This document shows positions 25,856 through 54,905 of a stretch of DNA of 64,000 nt, piece by piece. The translations under genes were made by a program, and so were the position numbers. This DNA comes from a virus. The notes beneath the pieces were generated by a model. The model was not told the DNA's origin and searched no databases. It saw nothing but the letters and a program-made list of their open reading frames with translations. The number at the start of each line of letters is the position of its first letter. The first letter of the stretch is position 1. The DNA lies in IMG/VR virus record IMGVR_UViG_3300028394_000001, positions 64,001-128,000 of that record, one strand, 5' to 3'.

Positions 25856-26076
25856 GGCCGATTAGCCTTGTGGATTATCTTGCCAACCACAGAGCAATCC
25901 AAAGCAGGCCCGATTCTCCCAGCCATATCATAACCCATCAAAATATTAACCATGTCCATCCAAAGCATTATCCTGCCCTCCAATAAATTGTATCCATTAC
26001 CAATACCACCACGACCAGCATATAAACGGCACAGAATGCCATGCCGGTCAGGACCTTTTCCATGTCCTTGTCCATA

Positions 26077-26310
26077 TTATGCTTCCAATCCCTTGAGAGC
26101 CTCAGAGGTACGCTCCTCGAAGCATTCTAGCCAGTGCGCTTGCTGTGCCTTGGTCATCTCAGCAAACATGGACAGGACCGTGCTCTCCATGTAACCTGCC
26201 GAGAAGGCGTAGGTCTTATGCTTTTTAACAGAGGTTTCACCGAAGGTCCTCAAGAGCTCTTGCATACGGAGGGTACGGACTTTGCTTGCTGCGGATTGTG
26301 TCTTGAACAT
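26077..26310 (-). CDS. Early hypothetical protein
   Basis: Own promoter cassette and AGGA RBS upstream. Confidence 0.65.
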   Translation of the reverse strand: MFKTQSAASKVRTLRMQELLRTFGETSVKKHKTYAFSAGYMESTVLSMFAEMTKAQQAHWLECFEERTSEALKGLEA

Positions 26311-26321
26311 TTTGCTTCCTA

Positions 26322-26384
26322 GTTTCGTTTAGATGGTGCCATTATACCAGAGTCCAGTGGTCCTGTCACAAACTAGAGTTGCGA
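26322..26384 (-). repeat. Promoter cassette repeat, copy 1 (GTGACA-17 nt-TATAAT with a TCGCAAC box)
   Basis: tttcgtttagatggtgccattataccagagtc...tcctgtcacaaact..agttgcga, near-identical to 27438-27499. Confidence 0.85.
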
Positions 26385-26603
26385 TCCTAGGAATTCTTCA
26401 GGCAGGTAGCCTAGAAGCTGTTCCTCGGGGCAGCACATTAGGAGACCTTCGATGGCTGTCAGGTCACCCATGGCTATGTCGGTTTTAATCTGCTCCAGGA
26501 CGGCATCGATTAGGGAAGCAGGGTCATCCTTGAATAGTTCGGCACGGGTCAAGGTTTGTCCTTGTAAGCGTTGCATCAGGTCAGCTTTGTAATTTTCGTT
26601 CAT
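26373..26603 (-). CDS. Early hypothetical protein
   Basis: D...GDLTAIEGLL...L.GYLPE pattern. Confidence 0.65.
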   Translation of the reverse strand: MNENYKADLMQRLQGQTLTRAELFKDDPASLIDAVLEQIKTDIAMGDLTAIEGLLMCCPEEQLLGYLPEEFLGSQL

Positions 26604-26616
26604 TTTATGCCTTAGA

Positions 26617-26651
26617 GGGGGCTTGACAAAGCAAGCCCCTTGTGATATAAT
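26617..26651 (+). promoter_or_regulatory. Hairpin GGGGCTTG-acaaag-CAAGCCCC overlapping a consensus + strand promoter
   Basis: TTGACA 26623-28, 17-nt spacer, TATAAT 26646-51; the hairpin lies just 3' of a minus-strand gene. Confidence 0.7.
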
Positions 26652-26920
26652 CAGCCCTTGGTCACAATAACTGCGGACGGTTTGCGATTCGCTTTGAGAG
26701 CTTTAGCGCCTACAGGAGCAGTCAGCTTTTCCAGTTTAGCTTTCGCTTTTGCGATAGCAGCTTCCTTGCGAGCAGCTGCCATAACCACTTTATCTTGCTT
26801 GATAGCGAAACGCTCATGAGCATATTGTTTAGCCATCTGAGCGACTTCAGCTTTGAGAGCTTTCAGCTCAGCACGCTTGTTTGCGAGAGCAGAACCGAGA
26901 AAAGATTTTGATTTAGCCAT
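26651..26920 (-). CDS. Lys/Ala-rich basic protein
   Basis: Start MAKSKSF follows an AAGGA RBS and a promoter at 26954-26982. Confidence 0.7.
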   Translation of the reverse strand: MAKSKSFLGSALANKRAELKALKAEVAQMAKQYAHERFAIKQDKVVMAAARKEAAIAKAKAKLEKLTAPVGAKALKANRKPSAVIVTKG

Positions 26921-26953
26921 TTTAAAGTTTCCTTTTTTGTTTACGATGGGTGT

Positions 26954-26998
26954 ATTATACACCCGGTTTAGTGAAATGTCAAGCAACCTTAGTTGCGA
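26954..26998 (-). promoter_or_regulatory. sigma70 promoter with a GCAAC-N4-GTTGC palindrome
   Basis: Minus strand reads TCGCAACTAAGGTTGCTTGACA-17 nt-TATAAT; the first 22 nt are identical to 30001-30022 (+). Confidence 0.85.
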
Positions 26999-27359
26999 AA
27001 TCATAGTTTTTGGAAATGTAGCCGTAAGGCACGCCCAGCAGGTATTCGGCAAAATCAGGATCACCAGCGGCACCTTCAGCCTCCATGATCCAACGGATGG
27101 CCGTGGCACGGTCTTGAGCACCAGTGGCCATCAGGTTGGCCAAACGAGCCTCGAAGCGCTCGATGGCCTGACCTTCATTAAAGGCCCGCAGGAGCTCCTC
27201 TTGGCGAATGGCCAGCTCGAGAGCTTCGAATTCAGCCACGAACATTTCCTCGGTCCAGTGGGTGGTATCCACGTGGCGAGGACGGATGCCGTGAGCGTCC
27301 TTGTACATATCCCAGTAAATACACTGGAGCTCTTCGGTGCGGGTCATTTCGTTGGTCAT
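26979..27359 (-). CDS. Conserved phage early protein
   Basis: YWDMYKDAHGIRPR and GAQDRATAIRWI motifs. Confidence 0.7.
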   Translation of the reverse strand: MTNEMTRTEELQCIYWDMYKDAHGIRPRHVDTTHWTEEMFVAEFEALELAIRQEELLRAFNEGQAIERFEARLANLMATGAQDRATAIRWIMEAEGAAGDPDFAEYLLGVPYGYISKNYDFATKVA

Positions 27360-27437
27360 ACTGTAGGCCTTAAATTAGATGGTTGATCCGTGCTTAACTT
27401 TTTGCTTTCGCGTGTCTTGCTTTTTGGATCAACCTTA

Positions 27438-27499
27438 TTTCGTTTAGATGGTGCCATTATACCAGAGTCGGTCGTTCCTGTCACAAACTGTAGTTGCGA
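27438..27499 (-). repeat. Promoter cassette repeat, copy 2
   Basis: Near-identical to 26322-26384. Confidence 0.85.
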
Positions 27500-27506
27500 T
27501 TTAGGA

Positions 27507-27731
27507 TTATTTCAGGACCTTTTTGGCCAGACGGAGAACCCGAGCCTCGATTTGGTATATCCGAGGGCCTGTGATTCCGTGTTCCTTAGCCAGCTGATTG
27601 ATAGCGACACCGTGGACTATCCGATCCACCATGATATTGTAGTCCCTTTCACTGACCTTGGAGGCCAGCTTGGTTGCCAGCATATCCTGAAGGCGGGAGG
27701 TGTAGACTGCGGCTTCGGTATCTGTTAGCAT
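27507..27731 (-). CDS. Stand-alone sigma70 region-4-like HTH protein
   Basis: SERDYNIMVDRI...INQLAKEHGITGPRIYQIEARVLR resembles the sigma4 pattern LxERE..I...R...TL.EI...G(I/V)T.ERIRQIE.KALRKL. Confidence 0.7.
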   Translation of the reverse strand: MLTDTEAAVYTSRLQDMLATKLASKVSERDYNIMVDRIVHGVAINQLAKEHGITGPRIYQIEARVLRLAKKVLK

Positions 27732-27878
27732 GACCAGTCCTTATTTGGCAATCACCTCGACGGTAGCCGCCTTGACCTTGGTGAGGCCCACGTCGGCTAT
27801 CTTAGCGAAGCCTGTGAAACCAACCGTAGCCACTATGATACCAAAAGCCATGCCTAATAGAAAATTCATTTTTTGTCC

Positions 27879-28187
27879 TTAATCGTGAGAGAAACCATAG
27901 TCCTCATCCGTACCGAAGCCCGCAGAGGCCATGGCCGAATCGTGGTCACCATCCATATCGACACCGAAATTCTCCTCTTGATCCTCATCGGTCCAGCCTT
28001 CGACATAGGTGCCGTCCTCAGCAAGAGTCTCCGTATATTCACCGAAACCCACACGGTAGGCGATAGGGTCCATCTCCTTCAGCACTGCGCTAGCCAGGAA
28101 AGAGGAGTAGCCCAGAGTAACCTCAGGGTATACCTCATCCAGCATTTGGTCATAGCGTTCGTAGGCTTCGTATTCGGAGAGTATCAT
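27879..28187 (-). CDS. Highly acidic early protein
   Basis: Asp/Glu-rich; LKEMDPIAYRVGF and DGDHDSAMASAGFGTDEDYG; AAGGA RBS. Confidence 0.7.
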   Translation of the reverse strand: MILSEYEAYERYDQMLDEVYPEVTLGYSSFLASAVLKEMDPIAYRVGFGEYTETLAEDGTYVEGWTDEDQEENFGVDMDGDHDSAMASAGFGTDEDYGFSHD

Positions 28188-46037: not shown

Positions 46038-46802
46038 ATGGCAAGCAATAGAAAAACAGCAATACAAAAACGTGATGATTCAATTGAAGGTGATGAGGTA
46101 ACACACAGACACCAACCCGTTTCAAACTCACTAAAAATAAAATTAGACCATTTAAAAACATTTGAAGCACTAACACAAAATCAACAAAAGTTCTTTGACG
46201 CATACAAAACAGGTGATTACTTTATTGGCCTATTAGGATCACCAGGTGTAGGTAAAACATTCTTAGCATTGTATCGTGCAATCGAAGAAGTATTAAACAA
46301 GGATAATCCTTTTACACATATTGTAGTTGTTCGTTCCGCTGTACAGGTAAGAGACCAAGGTTTTGTTCCTGGTACATTGGATGAAAAGATGGAGATTTAT
46401 GAAGTGCCTTACAAAGAAATTTGTGAGACACTTTTTGGTCGTTCTGATGCATGGGAAAGATTAAAGGAACAAGGTTACGCTAGATTCATTTCAACTACCG
46501 CTATTCGTGGTATCTCTATTGACAACTCTATCATTATTGTAGATGAATGCCAGTCAATGACATTTCATGAATTGAGTTCGGTTATCTCCCGTGTTGGCCA
46601 TCGTTCAAAGATTATATTTGTTGGTGACCTGAAACAGAATGACCTAATTAAGAGTAAACATGATATATCGGGCCTTGCTGAGTTTTTGAATGTTGCAAGA
46701 CATATGGATGAGTTTACTGAAATTTTATTTACACCAAACGACATTGTTCGCAGCAGTTTGGTCAAATCATGGATTGTTGCCTGCGATAAATTAGGAATAT
46801 AA
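46038..46802 (+). CDS. phoH: PhoH-family ATPase
   Basis: GSPGVGKTF, RG.SIDN, VDECQ, GDLKQND and DIVRS motifs. Confidence 0.93.
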   Translation: MASNRKTAIQKRDDSIEGDEVTHRHQPVSNSLKIKLDHLKTFEALTQNQQKFFDAYKTGDYFIGLLGSPGVGKTFLALYRAIEEVLNKDNPFTHIVVVRSAVQVRDQGFVPGTLDEKMEIYEVPYKEICETLFGRSDAWERLKEQGYARFISTTAIRGISIDNSIIIVDECQSMTFHELSSVISRVGHRSKIIFVGDLKQNDLIKSKHDISGLAEFLNVARHMDEFTEILFTPNDIVRSSLVKSWIVACDKLGI

Positions 46803-47398
46803 TGATTGATGATGTGTTATGTATTGAAGGTATCTTTGATGATCCGCAAGAAATTATAAATTTGGCGAAGAAACAAAGATACTATTCTTGTGAAGATAAT
46901 CCTACAGTAAAAAATACAAATATCAAGTATAGTGGTGAGAGAACCGACCATTTAGCCAACATATTGAGTGATGGTGAATACTATGAATTAACTAAGAAAA
47001 TCATAAGTAAAATATTCAAAAATGTACCATCGTCAAATATAAAGGCTCAAATTATTTGTTTGTTTCACTATCTAACTGAAATGGACATACCGAACAGTTC
47101 TTGGATACACAAAGATACATCATTGTATTCTGGTGTGATATATTTAAGTGAAGGTTTCAATGATAAATATAATAACCATGGTACCAAAATAATCATAGGC
47201 CGTGACGTTTTAAATTACCGCAATGAATTCAATAAGTTAATCCTATATCGTGGAGACTACTCACATTCGGCTAATTTTGGTTTTGGTCAAACTATAGATA
47301 ATTCAAGACTAACATTAAATTTCTTCATAAATGAAATAATGATTGATATGAAAAATGAAAATAAGGTAAAAGAGAAATACTATGATTACAAAACATGA
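46802..47398 (+). CDS. 2OG-Fe(II) oxygenase (DUF6445-like)
   Basis: WIHKD, SGVIYL, FNKLILY...HSA and RLT..FF give an HxD...H triad plus Arg. Confidence 0.8.
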   Translation: MIDDVLCIEGIFDDPQEIINLAKKQRYYSCEDNPTVKNTNIKYSGERTDHLANILSDGEYYELTKKIISKIFKNVPSSNIKAQIICLFHYLTEMDIPNSSWIHKDTSLYSGVIYLSEGFNDKYNNHGTKIIIGRDVLNYRNEFNKLILYRGDYSHSANFGFGQTIDNSRLTLNFFINEIMIDMKNENKVKEKYYDYKT

Positions 47399-47966
47399 AT
47401 GGTGGTCAACACCTGTTTGGGAGATTGAAACAGGATTTGATGAATATTTTAATTTGTGTTTTAGAAATGAATTACTTGATTTGATTTGTGCAAGTGAACA
47501 TAACAAATATGTCGATATTTGGACAGTAGATTCCGACTATTGCAGACAATTGAAGAATAAAATATATGAAATGATGGATTTAATTTTACCTGAATATTTT
47601 TCAAACTACCACGAATCAAAACCCTTTATATCAAATGGATGGGTGAATCAGCAAAAACCAGGACAATCATTTCCACTACACAGTCATGGTGAAAGTGTGG
47701 TGGCTTGCGTGTATTATATAGAAACTTATGAGAATAGTGGTGACCTTCTGATAGTAGATCCAAGGGGTTCTGTTGTTTGGGATTTGAATGTTGAGAATGG
47801 TGTAAACTCAGTAAAATATAAAAGAATTACACCAAAGGCAGGTAAAATGGTCTTATTTCCATCGTATCTATTACATTCAGTTGAAGAAAATAAGTCAGAA
47901 AAAACAAGATTTGGCATTGCTACAAATATACATATTCCCACGAAACACTATATAAATGACAGATAA
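47382..47966 (+). CDS. 2OG-Fe(II) oxygenase (TIGR02466 / 2OG-FeII_Oxy_5-like)
   Basis: W..TPVW, HSH, VYY, DPRG and FPSYLLHSVEEN..R.GIA.N motifs. Confidence 0.88.
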   Translation: MITKHEWWSTPVWEIETGFDEYFNLCFRNELLDLICASEHNKYVDIWTVDSDYCRQLKNKIYEMMDLILPEYFSNYHESKPFISNGWVNQQKPGQSFPLHSHGESVVACVYYIETYENSGDLLIVDPRGSVVWDLNVENGVNSVKYKRITPKAGKMVLFPSYLLHSVEENKSEKTRFGIATNIHIPTKHYINDR

Positions 47967-47971
47967 ATAGA
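47963..47971 (+). promoter_or_regulatory. Late promoter-like motif ATAAATAGA upstream of the Cys-rich gene
   Basis: Same 9-mer and similar leader and GGAGAA RBS as at 5521 before the putative structural gene. Confidence 0.55.
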
Positions 47972-47993
47972 CCATATCTTCGGAGAACAAAAA

Positions 47994-48395
47994 ATGACAT
48001 TACCAAACACATCTCAAGGAATATCTTTTCAAAATATAAGAGATGAAACGGGCCAACCTGCGGGTTTTTCCGCATCTATGCAATGGGTCAAGGACAACAG
48101 CAAACTCACAAAAGGCGGCGCCACTGGTGTTATTAATGACATGGGATCCCTACGCGATAAGGCATATTATAGAGATAATACTTCAGGCAATTGTAGTAAT
48201 GGTAATTGTACATCTAATTGTAATTGCGGTAATAAAAATTGCAGTAATTGTATTATTACTGGCACCGTAAATTGTGCAAATTGCGATGCTTCGGCTTTTA
48301 TCCAACCGAATTGTAATTGCAATTGTACATATAATTGTACCACTTCGTCAACATCTTTTAACTGTGATTGTTGGATCTGTGCTTGTACTTGGTAA
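47994..48395 (+). CDS. Asn-Cys-repeat protein; putative RiPP-like precursor or substrate of the adjacent radical SAM enzyme
   Basis: 66-aa Cys-free N-terminal part; residues 67-133 hold 16 Cys, 13 as NC; ends WICACTW; GGAG RBS. Confidence 0.8.
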   Translation: MTLPNTSQGISFQNIRDETGQPAGFSASMQWVKDNSKLTKGGATGVINDMGSLRDKAYYRDNTSGNCSNGNCTSNCNCGNKNCSNCIITGTVNCANCDASAFIQPNCNCNCTYNCTTSSTSFNCDCWICACTW

Positions 48396-48416
48396 TTTAA
48401 TAAACTAGGAAAAAAT

Positions 48417-49901
48417 ATGATTTTTGAAATTAATGCGGAGCGTAGTGCTTCAGACGTAAAGACTTTTTATTATGATAATGAAAAAAATATACTTTCAGAT
48501 TCTACTGGATTTGTTTATGAGTATCCGGAACCACAGATTCCACAACCCGTAACAGGTACAGGCTTGGAGTTATTCCATAAATGTGAAGAGGTTAAACCCT
48601 TTGATAAAAATACTCCACTAAAAAAATCAAAAGATGTTACTGTCATTAAAATCCAATTAGGTTTATCATGCAACTACTCTTGTGATTACTGCTCACAAAG
48701 GTTTGTTGAAAGGCCACCAGAAACTAGTAAAAAGGATATTGAATCTTTCATCTCTAAGTTGGATAATCTAAACATTACAGAAAAAGCTGGACTAAGAGTT
48801 GAATTTTGGGGTGGTGAACCACTTGTCTATTGGAAAACATTAAAACCTCTCGCTGAAACAATTGCTGAGAAATTTTCTCATTGGAAAAAGAAACCATCTT
48901 TTGGCATGGTGACTAATGGATCACTATTGACAAGAGAAATATGTTCTTGGTTATATTATATGGGTTTTGGTGTTGGTATTAGTCATGATGGTCCAGGTCA
49001 ACATGCTCGTGGTCCTGATCCATTTGAAGATCCAGAAAAAAAGAAAATCATCTTAGAGTTTTATAAAGTAATGCATTCCCAAAATCGTATTAGTTTTAAT
49101 TCTATGATGAATAGAAAGAATACTAGCCGCAAACAAATCCATGATTGGTTTGTTAATTTAACAGGTGATCCTACTGTTCCAATTGGTGAGGGTGGTTTTA
49201 TTGATGCATATGATGAAGCCGCTATCAATAGTTCATTAGAAACAAAACAAGAACATTTTGAATACCGAAGAAATGCATTTAATGATATTTATAGTACAGA
49301 TAATACAGATGAACAAATTAATTTTGGTATTATTAATGACAAAACAGACATGTTTGTTCGTGGTGTTTTGAATCACACTGAATCTAAATTTGTTGGTCAA
49401 AAATGCGGAATGGACAACGAAGGAACAATTTCTGTAGACCTCAAAGGTAACATCACAACTTGCCAAAATGTTTCTATAATGGAAACCAGTAAAAACGGTG
49501 AGTCACACTTAGGTGGTAACTTAGATGATTACGAAAATGTTGAACTGAAATCTGTTACTCATTGGATGAACCGAGCAGGTTGTAAGGATTGTCCTGTGTT
49601 GCATTTATGTAAAGGTTCTTGTATGTACCTTGACGGTAAATTTTGGGATATAACTTGCAATAATGCTTATAGTGATAATGTTGTTTTCTTTGCTTTAGCT
49701 CTGGAAAGAATTACAAATGGTTACATACCAACTAAAATTAAAGGTGATGGATTAGCTTTAGAAAGACAAGACATTTGGGGAACACTATATGAACACAAAG
49801 AAGTTGAAAAGAAAAAAATGATACCAATTAAAATTATAGCAGAAAAAATTGGTATGTTAAATGATGTTGAAATTTACGGACAATCAAGAGTAGAGGCATA
49901 A
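48417..49901 (+). CDS. Radical SAM / SPASM-domain peptide maturase-like enzyme
   Basis: CNYSCDYC, WGGEPL, VTNGSLL and ISHDG; SPASM region KCG...GNITTC...CKDCPVLHLCKGSC...C. Confidence 0.92.
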   Translation: MIFEINAERSASDVKTFYYDNEKNILSDSTGFVYEYPEPQIPQPVTGTGLELFHKCEEVKPFDKNTPLKKSKDVTVIKIQLGLSCNYSCDYCSQRFVERPPETSKKDIESFISKLDNLNITEKAGLRVEFWGGEPLVYWKTLKPLAETIAEKFSHWKKKPSFGMVTNGSLLTREICSWLYYMGFGVGISHDGPGQHARGPDPFEDPEKKKIILEFYKVMHSQNRISFNSMMNRKNTSRKQIHDWFVNLTGDPTVPIGEGGFIDAYDEAAINSSLETKQEHFEYRRNAFNDIYSTDNTDEQINFGIINDKTDMFVRGVLNHTESKFVGQKCGMDNEGTISVDLKGNITTCQNVSIMETSKNGESHLGGNLDDYENVELKSVTHWMNRAGCKDCPVLHLCKGSCMYLDGKFWDITCNNAYSDNVVFFALALERITNGYIPTKIKGDGLALERQDIWGTLYEHKEVEKKKMIPIKIIAEKIGMLNDVEIYGQSRVEA

Positions 49902-49902
49902 A

Positions 49903-50538
49903 ATGAAAGTTACAATCACACAAGAATTGCAGAATTGCATTAACCTTTTAAATTCTATTCCTGCTGTAAAATCAGTTGCAGTATCTGAAGCTTCAGACAT
50001 TATTAAATCACAAATTAAAAATGTAGACTCTTTCGTATTCAGTTTAACTAACGAGATGGGTAATACAATTAAATATATTATTCCTAAAAATGCGATTATT
50101 CGTGCAACAACTCATCCAGTGGAAGATTTTATGGATATTGTTAATGTTATAACACAAAGACTACAATTCTTAGATGAAAATACGAATCCAGATTGGATTG
50201 AACCTTGTTATTATAATAATATCGAAACAACTAGAGTTGAAGTGGTCAGAGAAGATATAGCACCAATTGCCGCAAATACTGAATTGCAATTATTAGTGAA
50301 TAGTTTGGAGGATCTACCTGGACTATTTAATGTTAATGTTTATTCATTAACATCAGGCAATGCCGATAGTGTATTTTTTACTTGTGATATTATTGAACAT
50401 CCTCGAGGTGGAAAAATTAATTTTGTGGTGCCTTTTAGTACATGCACAAATCTCGAAATGCATTCACAACTGATTGATAATGCAAATGAGTTATTCGAAC
50501 AAGCAAAAACAGGAAATACAACAACTAGTCAATCTTAA
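49903..50538 (+). CDS. Unknown protein with an internal two-fold repeat, starting 1 nt after the rSAM stop
   Basis: LQNCINLLNSIPAVKSVAV..NVDSFVF..GNTIKYIIP vs LQLLVNSLEDLPGLFNVNV..NADSVFF..GGKINFVVP. Confidence 0.7.
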   Translation: MKVTITQELQNCINLLNSIPAVKSVAVSEASDIIKSQIKNVDSFVFSLTNEMGNTIKYIIPKNAIIRATTHPVEDFMDIVNVITQRLQFLDENTNPDWIEPCYYNNIETTRVEVVREDIAPIAANTELQLLVNSLEDLPGLFNVNVYSLTSGNADSVFFTCDIIEHPRGGKINFVVPFSTCTNLEMHSQLIDNANELFEQAKTGNTTTSQS

Positions 50539-50544
50539 AATATT

Positions 50545-51201
50545 ATGAGAATCGAGAATATTTTTGGTTATAACATAACAAGAATACAATGTACAAATGA
50601 ATCTCTCTATAGAGATAATGAAATAACCAAAACGGTTAACAATGTATTTAATTTTCCAAAAGTTCAAAGTAGAGATAGAACACTCAAGGGAGATTCTCAT
50701 AAAGGTGCAGGTCTAACCACGGTTAGTGAATCATACCTTTCTTTAGTAAATCTACCGGGTTTTGGTAATTTAACTGAATGGATTACACAGCAATTTTTAT
50801 TGGCAAAAGAACCTTTGGGGCTTGACAATAAAGGAAATATCGTGTATTATAAGAGAAGTTGGGCAAATAGGTTATTTCGTGGCGGCCATGGATTATGCCA
50901 TAATCACAATAAAGTGGATAACTATATTGCGAGTCTTACGGATTATACAAATGAAAATTTTAGACCAGATGCTGTTGGTATTTTTTATCTTGATGTGCCG
51001 GAAGCTTCATCAAATTTAGTCATAGTTAAAGATGGCAAACCTGAGACTTGGATTGATGATTATGTAGAAGAAGATACTCATTGGATACAACCAATAGAAG
51101 GAGAGTTATTAATACACTCTCCTGATGTATATCATGCTGTGAGTGTTCATCACAATAATTTACCTCGTAATGTTTTTGTTTTTGATATTGAATATGTTTA
51201 A
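50545..51201 (+). CDS. 2OG-Fe(II) oxygenase
   Basis: SWAN, HNH, VGIFY and EGELLI...HAV...RNVFVFD motifs. Confidence 0.8.
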   Translation: MRIENIFGYNITRIQCTNESLYRDNEITKTVNNVFNFPKVQSRDRTLKGDSHKGAGLTTVSESYLSLVNLPGFGNLTEWITQQFLLAKEPLGLDNKGNIVYYKRSWANRLFRGGHGLCHNHNKVDNYIASLTDYTNENFRPDAVGIFYLDVPEASSNLVIVKDGKPETWIDDYVEEDTHWIQPIEGELLIHSPDVYHAVSVHHNNLPRNVFVFDIEYV

Positions 51202-51718
51202 AAAGAATCTTTTTGCAACACCAATTTGGCAAAGAATATTGCCAATTGAATTGAACAATGGATTATTAGAAGAATCTACTCAATTTGATGGTAATATATT
51301 TGATATGAACCTAACATATACAAATAAACTAAAAAACATTATTAGAGAATTATACATCAACATCAACTATGAATACATACTTGAAGAACGCACAATTCAT
51401 GGTAGACTGAATATAATAAATTATGGAGAAAATGATACACCACACAGTCACATAGGTAAATCACTTTTAGTTGGTGTCTATTATTTGGATGTTGAGATTG
51501 ATACGGGTGACCTTTTGTTACACGATCCCAGAGGTGGTGTTGTTTGGGATAATTTAGATTTTGAACCGAATGACCCTATAAAAGGAAAAACTTCCAGAAC
51601 TTATCATAGAATTAAACCTGTAAACGGATTATTAATTATGTTTCCTGGATATTTGGTACATTCAGTAGAAAACAATATGAATAAAAAACCAAGAAAGTCG
51701 ATAGTTATTAACATATGA
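51194..51718 (+). CDS. 2OG-Fe(II) oxygenase (TIGR02466-like)
   Basis: LFATPIW, PHSH, GVYY, HDPRG and FPGYLVHSVENN..RKSI motifs. Confidence 0.88.
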   Translation: MFKKNLFATPIWQRILPIELNNGLLEESTQFDGNIFDMNLTYTNKLKNIIRELYININYEYILEERTIHGRLNIINYGENDTPHSHIGKSLLVGVYYLDVEIDTGDLLLHDPRGGVVWDNLDFEPNDPIKGKTSRTYHRIKPVNGLLIMFPGYLVHSVENNMNKKPRKSIVINI

Positions 51719-53235
51719 AATATACAATATTGGGTGGCGGAAGTGCTGGTTGGTTAACTGCATTGTTCATTAGAAAAATTTGTCCAGATGATGAGGTAAC
51801 TGTCATTGCTAGCTCCGAAATTGGAATTTTAGGTGCAGGTGAAGGCACTACACCTCAATTTCCTATGTTTCTTAAAAAGATTGATATATCGGTTCATGAT
51901 ATAATTAAAAACGCTAAAGGAACATTTAAGAATGGAATTAAATTTACTAATTGGAATGGAGATGGTGAACATTACTATCATAACTTTCAAGATTCATTAG
52001 TAAATTTCGAAGATTACAAACACATTGATGTTAATCCCTATGCTTTAAATAACATTTCAAACCATGAAAATTTAGATAGCTTGAATTTTACTCCACTCAT
52101 ATCTGAAAAAAATAAAGTAAAATATATAAAATCTAATGATAAAGAATGTGGATCGGATGCGTTACATTTTGATGCAAATTTATTAGCCAAATATTTTCAA
52201 ACTGTTGGTTTAGAAAGAAATATTAAACTTGTTGATGATGAAGTTATTTCTGTTGATTCAAAGGACAATAAGATTGTTGGATTTAATTTAAAATCAAATA
52301 ATAAGATAGATACGGATTTTGTTTTTGATTGTTCTGGTTTTAAAAGATTTCTAATTGGTGGCCACTACAAAGGTAAATGGAATTCTTATAATGACCATTT
52401 ACCAATGAAACGAGCGATGCCTTTCTTTGTTCAGAACGACACTAAAGAGATTCCACCATACACAGAAAGTATTGCTATGAAGTATGGTTGGGTTTGGAAG
52501 ATTCCGGTACAAGGTCGATTTGGTTGTGGTTATGTGTTTGATTCGGATTTGGTGTCTGATGAAGAAATCAAAAAAGAGTTGGAGGAATATTTTGGACATG
52601 AAATTATAAGTCCAAGAACATTCACTTTTAATCCAGGTTGTTTTGAAGAGGTGTGTATAGGTAACTGTATTGCTATTGGTTTATCAGCCGCTTTTATTGA
52701 ACCACTTGAAGCGACAAGCATATGGGTTACCATTATGCAATTGACTGAATTTGAAGCGAATAAAAACAAAATCTTAAACGACTCTGGTGATTCTATTGAA
52801 TCATATAATCAAACTATTAAGGCAATAAACAGAGACATTTTAAACTTTATACAATTACACTATTTAACTAATCGTAATGATAGTGTTTTTTGGAATACTT
52901 TTAAAGTAAAAAACAAGGTATTACCGCAAATAGAAGGTCTTAAAGAATTGTGTCAAGATAAAATTCCAGAATCTCACAATTTAAAATACCTTACATTAAC
53001 AGAAAATATTAACATAGGTTGTTCGCGTAGTAACCATCGGGGTATTTTTTCCGAAACAAGTTGGCATCAAGTTGGTGCCGGCATAAAATTCTTTAAAGAA
53101 GATATTGCAAGAAAAGTTTTGGATACTGAATATCCAAATTTTAAAAATGAGGTTATATTTCAGGACTTTTTTGAAAAAAATAGTGAACTGTTATATGACC
53201 ATTACGATTACATAGAGAAATTAAAAAATGTTTAA
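51715..53235 (+). CDS. Flavin-dependent tryptophan halogenase family protein (PrnA-like)
   Basis: GGGSAGW, GAGEGT, FK.GIKF.NW, WVWKIP (WxWxIP) and FIEPLEATSI motifs. Confidence 0.92.
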   Translation: MKYTILGGGSAGWLTALFIRKICPDDEVTVIASSEIGILGAGEGTTPQFPMFLKKIDISVHDIIKNAKGTFKNGIKFTNWNGDGEHYYHNFQDSLVNFEDYKHIDVNPYALNNISNHENLDSLNFTPLISEKNKVKYIKSNDKECGSDALHFDANLLAKYFQTVGLERNIKLVDDEVISVDSKDNKIVGFNLKSNNKIDTDFVFDCSGFKRFLIGGHYKGKWNSYNDHLPMKRAMPFFVQNDTKEIPPYTESIAMKYGWVWKIPVQGRFGCGYVFDSDLVSDEEIKKELEEYFGHEIISPRTFTFNPGCFEEVCIGNCIAIGLSAAFIEPLEATSIWVTIMQLTEFEANKNKILNDSGDSIESYNQTIKAINRDILNFIQLHYLTNRNDSVFWNTFKVKNKVLPQIEGLKELCQDKIPESHNLKYLTLTENINIGCSRSNHRGIFSETSWHQVGAGIKFFKEDIARKVLDTEYPNFKNEVIFQDFFEKNSELLYDHYDYIEKLKNV

Positions 53236-53893
53236 CTATTGCGCTGTACCTACACTAAAAGATATTAAGGCTGAGACTTTCCCAGATGGCCGATACTATG
53301 TAATGGAAGACGGTGCAAGATTGCCGTCAATTACGACTGTACTGGGTGCTTTAAGTAAGGCTGACATACTTGCATGGCGTAAGCGTGTTGGTTATGAAGA
53401 AGCCAATAAAATCTCACGCAAAGCATCTGGTCGTGGTACCAATATGCATAGCATCTGTGAAGCATATCTAAACAACAATATAGAGTATTCAAAGAAGGCT
53501 ATGCCTGATGCATTGGAAATGTTCAAGAGCCTCAAACCAATTATAGATGCAAATGTGTCTGATATTTGGTACCAAGAATGTGCATTGTTTTCCAAAAAAC
53601 TTGGTGTTGCAGGTCGTGTTGACTTGATTGCACATTGGGACGGAAAACTATCTATCATTGATTTCAAGACCAGTAGCAGGATTAAAACCAGAGATAAGGT
53701 TATGTCCTATTTTTGGCAAGAAACTGCATATGCATTGATGTTAGAAGAAATGATTGATATACCTGTTGACCAGATTGTTACCGTTATGGCAGTAGATGGT
53801 TCTGAACCATTGGTGTTCATTGAAAAGACTCAAGACCATATCGATGGACTAGTAAAAGCCATACAATTCTATAAAGATTCTTTGGTGGCTTGA
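53228..53893 (+). CDS. PD-(D/E)XK exonuclease
   Basis: PSITTVL, RGT.MH, AGRVD, IIDFKTS and Q..AY motifs. Confidence 0.9.
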   Translation: MFNYCAVPTLKDIKAETFPDGRYYVMEDGARLPSITTVLGALSKADILAWRKRVGYEEANKISRKASGRGTNMHSICEAYLNNNIEYSKKAMPDALEMFKSLKPIIDANVSDIWYQECALFSKKLGVAGRVDLIAHWDGKLSIIDFKTSSRIKTRDKVMSYFWQETAYALMLEEMIDIPVDQIVTVMAVDGSEPLVFIEKTQDHIDGLVKAIQFYKDSLVA

Positions 53894-54019: not shown

Positions 54020-54124
54020 TTTTAACACTATAGAAGATTAGATAATATCAAATCTCAGGGCTGGTACACCAGATTACTCTAGGGAAACCTAAAAGTGCAG
54101 ATAGACCGTATAGTGTTTTTTATT

Positions 54125-54436
54125 GCTGTATGAAGCAAAGAGAAAAGTGTTCTGGACGGGGGTGCGAATCCCCCCAGGTCCACCATAAGGATTGTAATGA
54201 AAGAAAAAATATTAACTGCTATTGAAATGATTGCAGAGTTCCTAAAAGGAATAGCACAATCTTTATGATGGGCCTGCATAGTTTCGACAGGGCAAAGAGT
54301 AACAGAGTGGACAGCACGGTAGGCGATGACCGTTAATCAAGCAAAAAACGTAAATGCAAACGACTCCGCATATCGCCTAGCTGCTTAAGCTAAGCTGAGG
54401 TTTCGCCGACTGTCCTTATTATCCAATCAGTCGGCA
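54125..54436 (+). ncRNA. ssrA: Circularly permuted (two-piece) tmRNA; outer boundaries approximate
   Basis: Acceptor piece ends GGGGGTGCGAATCCCCCCAGGTCCACCA (54185). Coding piece starts GGGCCTG (54270) and pairs 7/7 with CAGGTCC, including the G3-U70 Ala determinant. Tag ORF ANDSAYRLAA* at 54356-54388. Confidence 0.93.
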
Positions 54437-54461
54437 ATTTGTTCAACAAAAGGAGAAAATT

Positions 54462-54905
54462 TTGATTAAAAAACTCGTACTTATCGCATCCCTTATGGGT
54501 GTATTTGCAAGCGCACAGGCTTTAGAAGTTGGTATCAATGATGGTACTAATCTTAGCTCAACGCAAAATGTTTGGGGTGTTACAGTAGGTGAAACTGTGA
54601 AAGGTTATAACTTAACCGCAGGCTTCAATCGTTCTACAACTGCCGACTCTTATAGTTTGGTAAATGCTGTAGAGGTAGCAAAATTTGGACCTGTATCACT
54701 TGATGCTAAATTTGGTGCTGTCTTTGTTGACAGTCAATCAGGTTCAGCTTATGATGGTTATGCCGCTACGGTTGGTGTCGGTGCTCGTATGCCTATCACT
54801 AAATCAGTTTCAGCAGGCCTTGATTACAGTTACCAAGCTGGTCAAGACCGTGTTGTTGCAGAAAACGGTAGCCGTATCACTGCTGGCGTTAAATTTAGTT
54901 TCTAA
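54462..54905 (+). CDS. Outer-membrane beta-barrel protein (OmpA-TM/Ail/Lom-like)
   Basis: Signal peptide ending AQA; alternating beta strands; C-terminal beta-signal GVKFSF. Confidence 0.8.
   Translation: MIKKLVLIASLMGVFASAQALEVGINDGTNLSSTQNVWGVTVGETVKGYNLTAGFNRSTTADSYSLVNAVEVAKFGPVSLDAKFGAVFVDSQSGSAYDGYAATVGVGARMPITKSVSAGLDYSYQAGQDRVVAENGSRITAGVKFSF

Follow-up and report, generated by a model that had tools for sequence, protein, structure and literature searches.

Introduction

CrpC, a radical S-adenosylmethionine (rSAM) enzyme that forms ranthionine links on a protein, holds its first auxiliary cluster (AuxI) through three Cys residues, so that an iron remains available to a thiol of the substrate (PMC13692751), and NxxcB joins Cys to the beta-carbon of Asn, with Ala, Gln and Asp tolerated in its place (PMC9389541). 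The brominase SrpI requires a Cys-modified core with Trp at the C-terminus (PMC10286304), and a fibre gene followed by a small tip gene constitutes the gp37-gp38 arrangement of T-even phages (PMC6851490). Here we analyse an eight-gene island that encodes a Cys-rich protein, an rSAM/SPASM enzyme, oxygenase-like proteins and a Trp-halogenase-family enzyme, located in a 64,000-nucleotide (nt) stretch of viral DNA (positions 64,001 to 128,000 of IMG/VR record IMGVR_UViG_3300028394_000001). This whole stretch is hereafter called the window, and positions refer to it unless stated otherwise.

The island is a real, conserved and widespread module. From gene neighbourhoods, domain relationships and phylogenetic distribution we propose, with a probability of roughly 0.6 for the full mechanism, that it is an exchangeable module which would supply both a protein for the tip of the tail fibre and the enzymes responsible for its maturation. 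An initial annotation had presented the block as a peptide-modification island resembling those of peptides that are ribosomally made and modified after translation (RiPPs); in our analysis, a secreted peptide is a less likely identity for its Cys-rich protein than a modified fibre tip of the virion. The eight tightly packed same-strand genes at 46802-53235 then described are borne out by the layout of the open reading frames (ORFs), although a 211-amino-acid (aa) gene (49903-50538) and a late-promoter motif (47963-47969) had gone unmentioned. The genes lie contiguously on the + strand, between phoH (46038-46802) and an exonuclease gene (53228-53893), as follows:

46802-47398, +, DUF6445-like protein with an HxD...H...R pattern of the 2-oxoglutarate (2OG)-Fe(II) type (PF20043 E 1e-4, below cut-off); accessory; borders the insertion on the left
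47382-47966, +, oxygenase OG1, TIGR02466/PF13759 (PF13759 E 1.5e-18); loosely linked
47963-47969, +, T4-type late promoter core ATAAATA, ~25 nt upstream of the Cys-rich gene
47994-48395, +, putative substrate and fibre-tip protein of 133 aa; N-terminal domain at residues 1-~62, Asn-Cys domain at residues 65-133, ending in Trp133
48417-49901, +, putative radical SAM/SPASM maturase with a seven-Cys SPASM domain (PF04055, TIGR04085), paired with the substrate gene
49903-50538, +, conserved, fast-evolving partner of 211 aa with a tandem alpha/beta repeat, directly after the rSAM gene
50545-51201, +, divergent TIGR02466-like oxygenase OG3 (PF13759 E 1e-4, below cut-off); cassette-specific
51194-51718, +, oxygenase OG4, TIGR02466/PF13759, 174 aa from the ATG at 51194 (PF13759 E 1e-13); loosely linked
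51715-53235, +, flavin-dependent enzyme of the Trp-halogenase family (PF04820), from a cassette-restricted clade; borders the insertion on the right

The Asn-Cys Protein and Its Radical SAM Partner

All 16 Cys residues of the 133-aa protein are found within residues 67-133, and 13 of them are preceded by Asn, a number of Asn-Cys pairs reached in 0 of 100,000 shuffles of the Cys tail; these features and the gap of 21 nt between the end of its ORF and the start of the rSAM gene are as initially annotated. No other Asn-Cys ORF of this type is present in the 170.5-kb genome. The protein has 119 close homologues, with 127 clusters at 50% identity, and could be assigned to no Pfam, NCBIfam or PHROGs family, its ESM Atlas matches being unnamed viral clusters only. 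The residue preceding Cys across the homologues is Asn (72%), Ala (14%), Asp (7%) or Gln (3%), these four accounting for 96% of the cases. The number of Cys residues shows no even-number bias, being odd in 62 and even in 55 of 117 homologues, which argues against a purely disulfide-paired domain. The tail also contains many N-x-x-C units, and since the residue before one Cys is, in the alternating runs, also three positions before the next Cys, the ring size is unreadable from the sequence. An AlphaFold model has a predicted local distance difference test (pLDDT) score of ~80 for the N-terminal domain and below 50 for the tail, and neither Foldseek nor VIA returned a match to it.

In about 20 of the 119 homologues a C-terminal Peptidase_S74 domain, the self-cleaving chaperone of trimeric fibres, is fused right behind the Cys tail, so that cleavage before Ser would leave an end like that of the free forms. 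Other homologues carry at the same junction a Hint domain or an unnamed domain of ~170 aa. The latter is seen in substrate forms of ~300 aa (L009:2328-3227, L030:10001-10909 and ~80 others), where it has a hydrophobic end and matches nothing in Pfam with confidence; it could be either one more self-processing domain, the third, or a membrane anchor. In one locus (L314:4103-4357) the substrate gene has only 84 aa, compared with 160 aa in near-identical sister loci, owing to a frameshift or an assembly error.

The rSAM enzyme carries Cys85, Cys89 and Cys92 in a CxxxCxxC motif and seven SPASM cysteines (Cys330, Cys349, Cys389, Cys392, Cys398, Cys402 and Cys414), all of them invariant in 46 homologues. 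It scores above cut-off for PF04055 and TIGR04085, in agreement with the rSAM/SPASM identity first given to it, and does not match PF13186. A substrate gene is present within 4 kb of the rSAM gene in 103 of 106 scorable loci (the exceptions being phages JWF and RSP15 and one 12%-complete contig), and the co-occurrence of rSAM homologues with Cys-rich ORFs, on which the earlier proposal depended, is thereby established. The pairing extends to bacterial genomes, where a Cys-tailed protein, mostly fibre-like, was identified at 64 of 80 rSAM loci, most of the remainder being short contigs; 2,622 rSAM clusters were obtained at E<=1e-40 among 8,000 candidates. Judging from this conservation, the rSAM enzyme very probably acts on the 133-aa protein, and thioethers joining Cys to Asn, Ala or Asp are the product that we favour. 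A check for a RiPP recognition element gave no PqqD-type Pfam match on or beside the rSAM enzyme and, in the 211-aa protein considered for this role, no clear fold match.

Some further arrangements of this enzyme family were observed. In Limnohabitans and related genomes (L431-L505) it is encoded beside fibre-like proteins with short alternating-Cys tails, in up to four copies per assembly. In other lineages, the rSAM enzyme and its substrate are accompanied by other enzymes, of the fatty-acid-desaturase family (L018:8536-9264) or of the cupin type (L004:4765-5445), and two loci (L037:1677-3233 and L233:8482-10044) have a second, paired radical SAM gene of ~520 aa, with a weak B12-binding match in L233.

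Evidence for a Probable Location at the Fibre Tip

A T4 late-promoter core is positioned at most 70 nt upstream of 69 of 93 substrate homologues, compared with 37 of 973 other genes (4%). The 69 include 32 of the 46 substrate genes placed behind an rSAM gene, whereas the core precedes none of 26 halogenase genes and 1 of 116 oxygenase genes; the island enzymes, having no late motif of their own, are probably read through from upstream. Many of the substrate genes without the core sit directly after a fibre gene. In the genome studied here the core also precedes genes which, from their starts, we take to encode neck, sheath, tube, scaffold, capsid and gp25 proteins.

Fifteen of 147 distinct substrate genes start -3 to +4 nt from a gene for a fibre ending in Peptidase_S74, in T4-like and other backbones, and the same order, S74 fibre then substrate, is present in Polynucleobacter (NZ_JACVPJ010000020) and Paraburkholderia prophages. 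The only S74-ended fibre of this genome is encoded outside the window, at 150242-155413 (genome coordinates), with no N-domain gene behind it; the 133-aa ORF is the only N-domain protein of the genome, and the mature end of the S74 fibre resembles the ends of the fibres that precede substrate genes in relatives. A search for relatives of this fibre end gave one distant match only.

The N-domain is not restricted to Cys-rich proteins. Its profile reaches Cys-free proteins (E 4e-8), relatives of which occur in 44 cultured-phage records (BUCT194 and others), their genes often overlapping a tail-fibre gene. Glycine-rich, gp38-like forms share the domain, and in two substrates (L003:6876-7979 and L004:311-1405) the N-domain is separated from the Cys domain by a gp38-like glycine-rich insert, for which the best solved match is the ALK glycine-rich domain. 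The Cys tail, in turn, also ends long tail fibres that do not have this N-domain. The cultured Achromobacter phage JWF and Ralstonia phage RSP15 encode an rSAM homologue (44-46%) as part of the tail module; the fibres encoded ahead of it end in Asn-Cys runs, which in JWF are followed by a Hint domain. A profile comparison between the substrate family and JWF gp28 was not significant, and the part shared with it is thus the short Cys tail only.

Taken from these genomic associations, a virion location at the tip of a tail fibre is likely for the 133-aa protein. The initial framing of its N-terminal half as the leader of a precursor does not agree with an N-half shared with Cys-free adhesin-like proteins, with the late promoter or with the coupling to fibre genes. 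The absence of an exporter or dedicated peptidase, also pointed out at that stage, was confirmed in the Pfam, NCBIfam and PHROGs annotation of the island genes; it would be accounted for if the N-half is the part by which a late-made protein, probably carried on the virion, is attached.

The Halogenase and the C-Terminal Tryptophan

The assignment of a PrnA-like Trp halogenase is well supported (PF04820, E 1.6e-92), with the flavin adenine dinucleotide (FAD) motif, the WxWxIP motif, Lys72 and Glu329/332 all present, and the gene is the sole copy in the genome. In a tree of 100 phage halogenases, the 35 cassette-linked enzymes form one clade (SH-aLRT 99), together with two from truncated contigs and no free-standing member. 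Scored on the mature C-terminus of the substrate, terminal Trp and halogenase are both present in 29 loci and both absent in 86, the discordant cases being one Trp without halogenase and three halogenases without Trp. Of the 32 loci that have a halogenase of this clade, 29 thus have a substrate ending in Trp, and the other three substrates end in Phe, with a Trp within the last eight residues. The match between halogenase and terminal Trp that had been suggested is thus recovered, from few independent events: the Fisher p value for the association (3e-23) is invalid as a test, because kin share traits. Pairwise distances co-vary with rSAM distances for the halogenase (rho 0.26), OG3 (0.61) and the substrate (0.28), which indicates co-inheritance, not function. 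We consider that the halogenase probably acts on the terminal or near-terminal Trp of the substrate.

About half of the cassette halogenases have only ~380-400 aa (L013, L014, L045, L096, L100, L102 and others) and are devoid of the C-terminal end and of an internal segment of ~55 residues, a difference suggestive of an active site that is open.

Oxygenases and the 211-aa Partner

The four 2OG oxygenases initially counted are such by motif only. By family, PF13759 is passed by OG1 and OG4 and missed by OG3, all three miss the cut-off of TIGR02466, and the fourth protein is a sub-threshold DUF6445 member. Their distribution also differs, and only part of the single pathway that was envisaged for them is retained. 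OG3, with the invariant residues His119, His121, Asp142, His197 and Arg208, occurs in 26 of 27 halogenase-type loci and in none of 70 other rSAM loci, and forms one clade. In a reverse search, its close homologues were found only in the cassette or beside a halogenase on truncated contigs, two at contig starts being unscorable, and distant homologues are located outside the cassette. OG1 and OG4 types are more loosely linked (25 of 27 halogenase-type loci and 43 of 70 others), and the DUF6445 gene is present in 6 of 27 halogenase-type cassettes and 2 of 70 others.

From these patterns, OG3 may well act on the substrate, by a slight preference on our part; the same role is conceivable, on a tentative basis, for OG1 and OG4 and is rather unlikely for the DUF6445 protein. 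The proposed beta-hydroxylation of Asn found no support: nothing observed pointed to it, and none of the four proteins matched the Pfam family of AspH-type Asp/Asn beta-hydroxylases at E<=0.1; hydroxylation specifically at Asn is doubtful.

A relative of the 211-aa gene, of ~210-240 aa, follows the rSAM gene in nearly all halogenase-type loci and in some others. The model of the protein (pLDDT 85) has no clear fold match, the best (Z 6.2) being to part of a YcaO chain.

Insertion Site and Genome Context

The window is part of a complete T4-like phage genome of 170,520 bases, whose host, to go by the places in which relatives occur, is probably a betaproteobacterium of fresh water. The eight-gene block is a clean insertion at the phoH/exonuclease junction, as had been surmised. 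We sampled 80 PhoH relatives, none of which has an rSAM gene at this position; 62 extend as far as the exonuclease, and in 22 of them the two genes are directly adjacent; these 22 include six with 96-97% identical PhoH in which phoH is joined straight to the exonuclease gene and the slot is empty. The ends of the island coincide with the overlapping stop and start codons of the empty site. The G+C content at third codon positions (GC3) is 0.18-0.28 in the island genes, compared with 0.33-0.39 in four measured genes to their right, and is not below that of phoH (0.26). Island, Cys protein and S74 domain are all absent from G001, which is the closest complete relative.

In sister phages, the slot is occupied by other small genes, several of which are Cys-free with the same type of N-domain, mostly with a late motif; the one slot protein tested for it has a glycine-rich domain. 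The junction (46802/53228; loci L344-L410) can thus be described as a hot-swap slot for varied small gene sets led by late promoters, with a fibre-tip or adhesin look and at least two N-terminal types.

Within this genome, PF13759 and PF04820 genes occur only in the island, and no flavin reductase was detected. A scan for sigma-70 promoters and terminators gave matches at chance level only. Two features of the window lie outside the island: a permuted (two-piece) phage transfer-messenger RNA with a 10-residue tag, just 3' of the exonuclease gene (54093-54479, +), and a region at 26001-28000 whose G+C content rises to 0.48-0.52, compared with 0.37 for the genome, and in which no tRNA was found.

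Proposed Mechanism and Alternative Explanations

We hypothesize that the 133-aa protein, whose gene has its own late promoter pattern, would be made late, and that its N-domain of ~60 residues would cap the trimeric end of the single S74-ended fibre, as gp38 caps gp37 in T-even phages; this capping is suggested by the gene context in relatives. The substrate thiols would be bound by the rSAM/SPASM enzyme at an open site of AuxI, a site predicted by analogy with CrpC, and several Cys residues would be linked to the beta-carbon of nearby Asn, Ala or Asp residues. The product would be a thioether-stapled distal domain, stable without an oxidative folding compartment. In this lineage the dedicated flavin halogenase, using reduced flavin from the host, would halogenate Trp133, and at least OG3 would add a further oxidation. 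The modified distal domain most likely serves receptor binding or stability. With somewhat less than even confidence we also put forward a broader proposition: the tail fibres of many phages would be capped by a domain macrocyclised in a radical reaction and then diversified by swappable tailoring enzymes, host recognition would depend on chemistry of the RiPP kind, and a virion protein would be the natural substrate for one phage clade of Trp halogenases and of TIGR02466 oxygenases.

Fibre tips set the host range of phages and are usually treated as unmodified polypeptides. If the proposed mechanism is correct, a thioether-stapled and halogenated tip adds a chemical layer to host recognition and explains the poor modelling of such tips, and a natural substrate can be named for Trp halogenases and TIGR02466 oxygenases, two enzyme families of aquatic-phage islands without a known natural target. 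The presence of the core pair in the cultured phages JWF and RSP15 and in prophages of cultured Burkholderiales makes the system open to experiment.

Several observations weigh against this mechanism. In this genome the substrate gene lies ~38 kb from the fibre gene. The N-domain, a small domain in a weak whole-protein model, matches no solved structure, nor S16 gp38 by sequence or structure, and its likeness to gp38 is therefore positional only; no N-domain match was obtained in either of two sister contigs that encode an S74 fibre, in a search with a weak model and no positive control. The named maturase families (PapB, CteB/SCIFF, QhpD and CcpM) all score below the NCBIfam cut-offs on the rSAM enzyme, the best reaching 84 bits against 340-500. 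The link between Trp and halogenase is confined to two rSAM clades, with 3-4 changes on the rSAM tree, so that an independent-pairs test has no power and shared descent alone could explain it. Moreover, L235 retains a terminal Trp without a halogenase, and L037 and L281 have a Trp seven residues from the end and no halogenase.

The enzyme set is typical of RiPP clusters, and a Cys-free N-half followed by a Cys-rich C-half is what a classical RiPP would have: the former would be a removed leader and the latter a modified core freed at lysis as a toxin or signal, with which the late promoter is also compatible. This explanation is improbable, given an N-half common to Cys-free adhesin-like proteins, the coupling of substrate genes to fibre genes, the same Cys tail on long fibres without the N-domain and the lack of a peptidase and an exporter in the island. 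A role inside the infected cell, as a defence decoy or a fibre assembly factor, appears very improbable. T4 gp38 is indeed a folding helper encoded in the same gene position (PMC6851490), and the distance from the fibre gene in this genome would suit such a role; however, the N-domain is shared with glycine-rich adhesin-like forms, and the S74 and Hint fusions, like the Cys tails at the ends of fibres, suggest that its place is a distal and structural one. Substrate and location could also be as proposed and the chemistry a different one, with metal-bound or disulfide-paired Cys residues and an rSAM enzyme that carries out epimerisation or forms C-C or C-N links or alpha-thioethers. Runs of CxC are known in metal-binding proteins too, no maturase family is above cut-off and a low-confidence model of the unmodified tail would fit any unusual structure. 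Nevertheless, the strict choice of Asn, Ala, Asp or Gln before Cys, the balanced Cys counts and the resemblance of the seven-Cys SPASM domain to those of thioether-forming enzymes render other chemistry unlikely.

The remaining alternative limits the system to the rSAM-substrate pair and regards the halogenase and the oxygenases as linked cargo acting on small molecules or on other proteins. Trp halogenases are frequent in aquatic phages without any rSAM gene (most of the best 80 halogenase loci), the Trp/halogenase events are few and other lineages swap in a desaturase, a second radical SAM enzyme or a cupin. Against it, every PF13759 and PF04820 gene of the genome is confined to the island, and the clades of the halogenase and of OG3 stay within the cassette over a divergence of 47-60%, in several gene orders and in phages that differ in their backbones. 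We therefore regard it as rather unlikely for the enzyme set; the idea that all of these enzymes are independent cargo was dropped for the halogenase (cassette-only clade, Trp tracking) and for OG3 (cassette-only clade) and kept for the DUF6445 protein, for which it is likely to be true.

Comparison with Known Systems

CrpC/CrpA from Methanococcus voltae (PMC13692751) and QhpD/QhpC resemble the island in having a seven-Cys rSAM/SPASM enzyme beside a Cys-rich protein substrate, and the spacing of the SPASM cysteines is close in CrpC (333/352/390/393/399/403/422) and in the enzyme described here (330/349/389/392/398/402/414). In contrast, the CrpC and QhpD systems concern cellular proteins, with no phage or virion role and no halogenase, and the QhpD family model scores 73 bits on our enzyme against a cut-off of 453, which denotes remote similarity only. 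In NxxcB/NxxcA, PapB/PapA and CteB (PMC9389541; NF047865) Cys residues are joined to beta-carbons by thioethers, and the acceptors used by NxxcB are the residues that precede Cys in our protein; however, NxxcB, PapB and CteB act on short peptides that have an exporter and a leader that can be removed, whereas a 133-aa protein with a structural N-domain is found here, and the PapB model gives 78 bits against a cut-off of 340. The rSAM enzyme of PMC12801897 is a different one.

In SrpI/SrpE, a RiPP brominase and its substrate from a sponge microbiome (PMC10286304), and in MibH, a PF04820-family enzyme acts, once the Cys residues of a Cys-rich core have been modified, on the C-terminal Trp of this core, which offers a possible analogy for the island halogenase; unlike here, the Cys residues of SrpE are converted to thiazolines by a YcaO enzyme and a proteusin leader is needed. 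VirX1 of cyanophage Syn10 (PMC8407142) is also a phage-encoded flavin-dependent halogenase, for which the part of the source available to us lists non-natural substrates only, whereas the present clade is tied to one protein substrate.

The gp37-gp38 tip of T-even phages (phage S16; PMC6851490) shares with the module a small gene behind the fibre gene in relatives, an N-terminal attachment part with a variable distal domain and the existence of glycine-rich forms. Its gene order was met in the 15 of 147 homologues and two prophages mentioned above, and not in this genome; the solved gp38, with its three-helix attachment domain bearing Trp residues at the apex, has no detectable similarity to the N-domain and is without known enzymatic maturation, and the distal domain of our protein is Cys-rich. 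No paper on the maturation of phage fibres by radical SAM enzymes or halogenases was found, in a literature set that is thin in subscription journals. The module thus appears to combine chemistry of a known kind with a new role, at the tip of a phage fibre.

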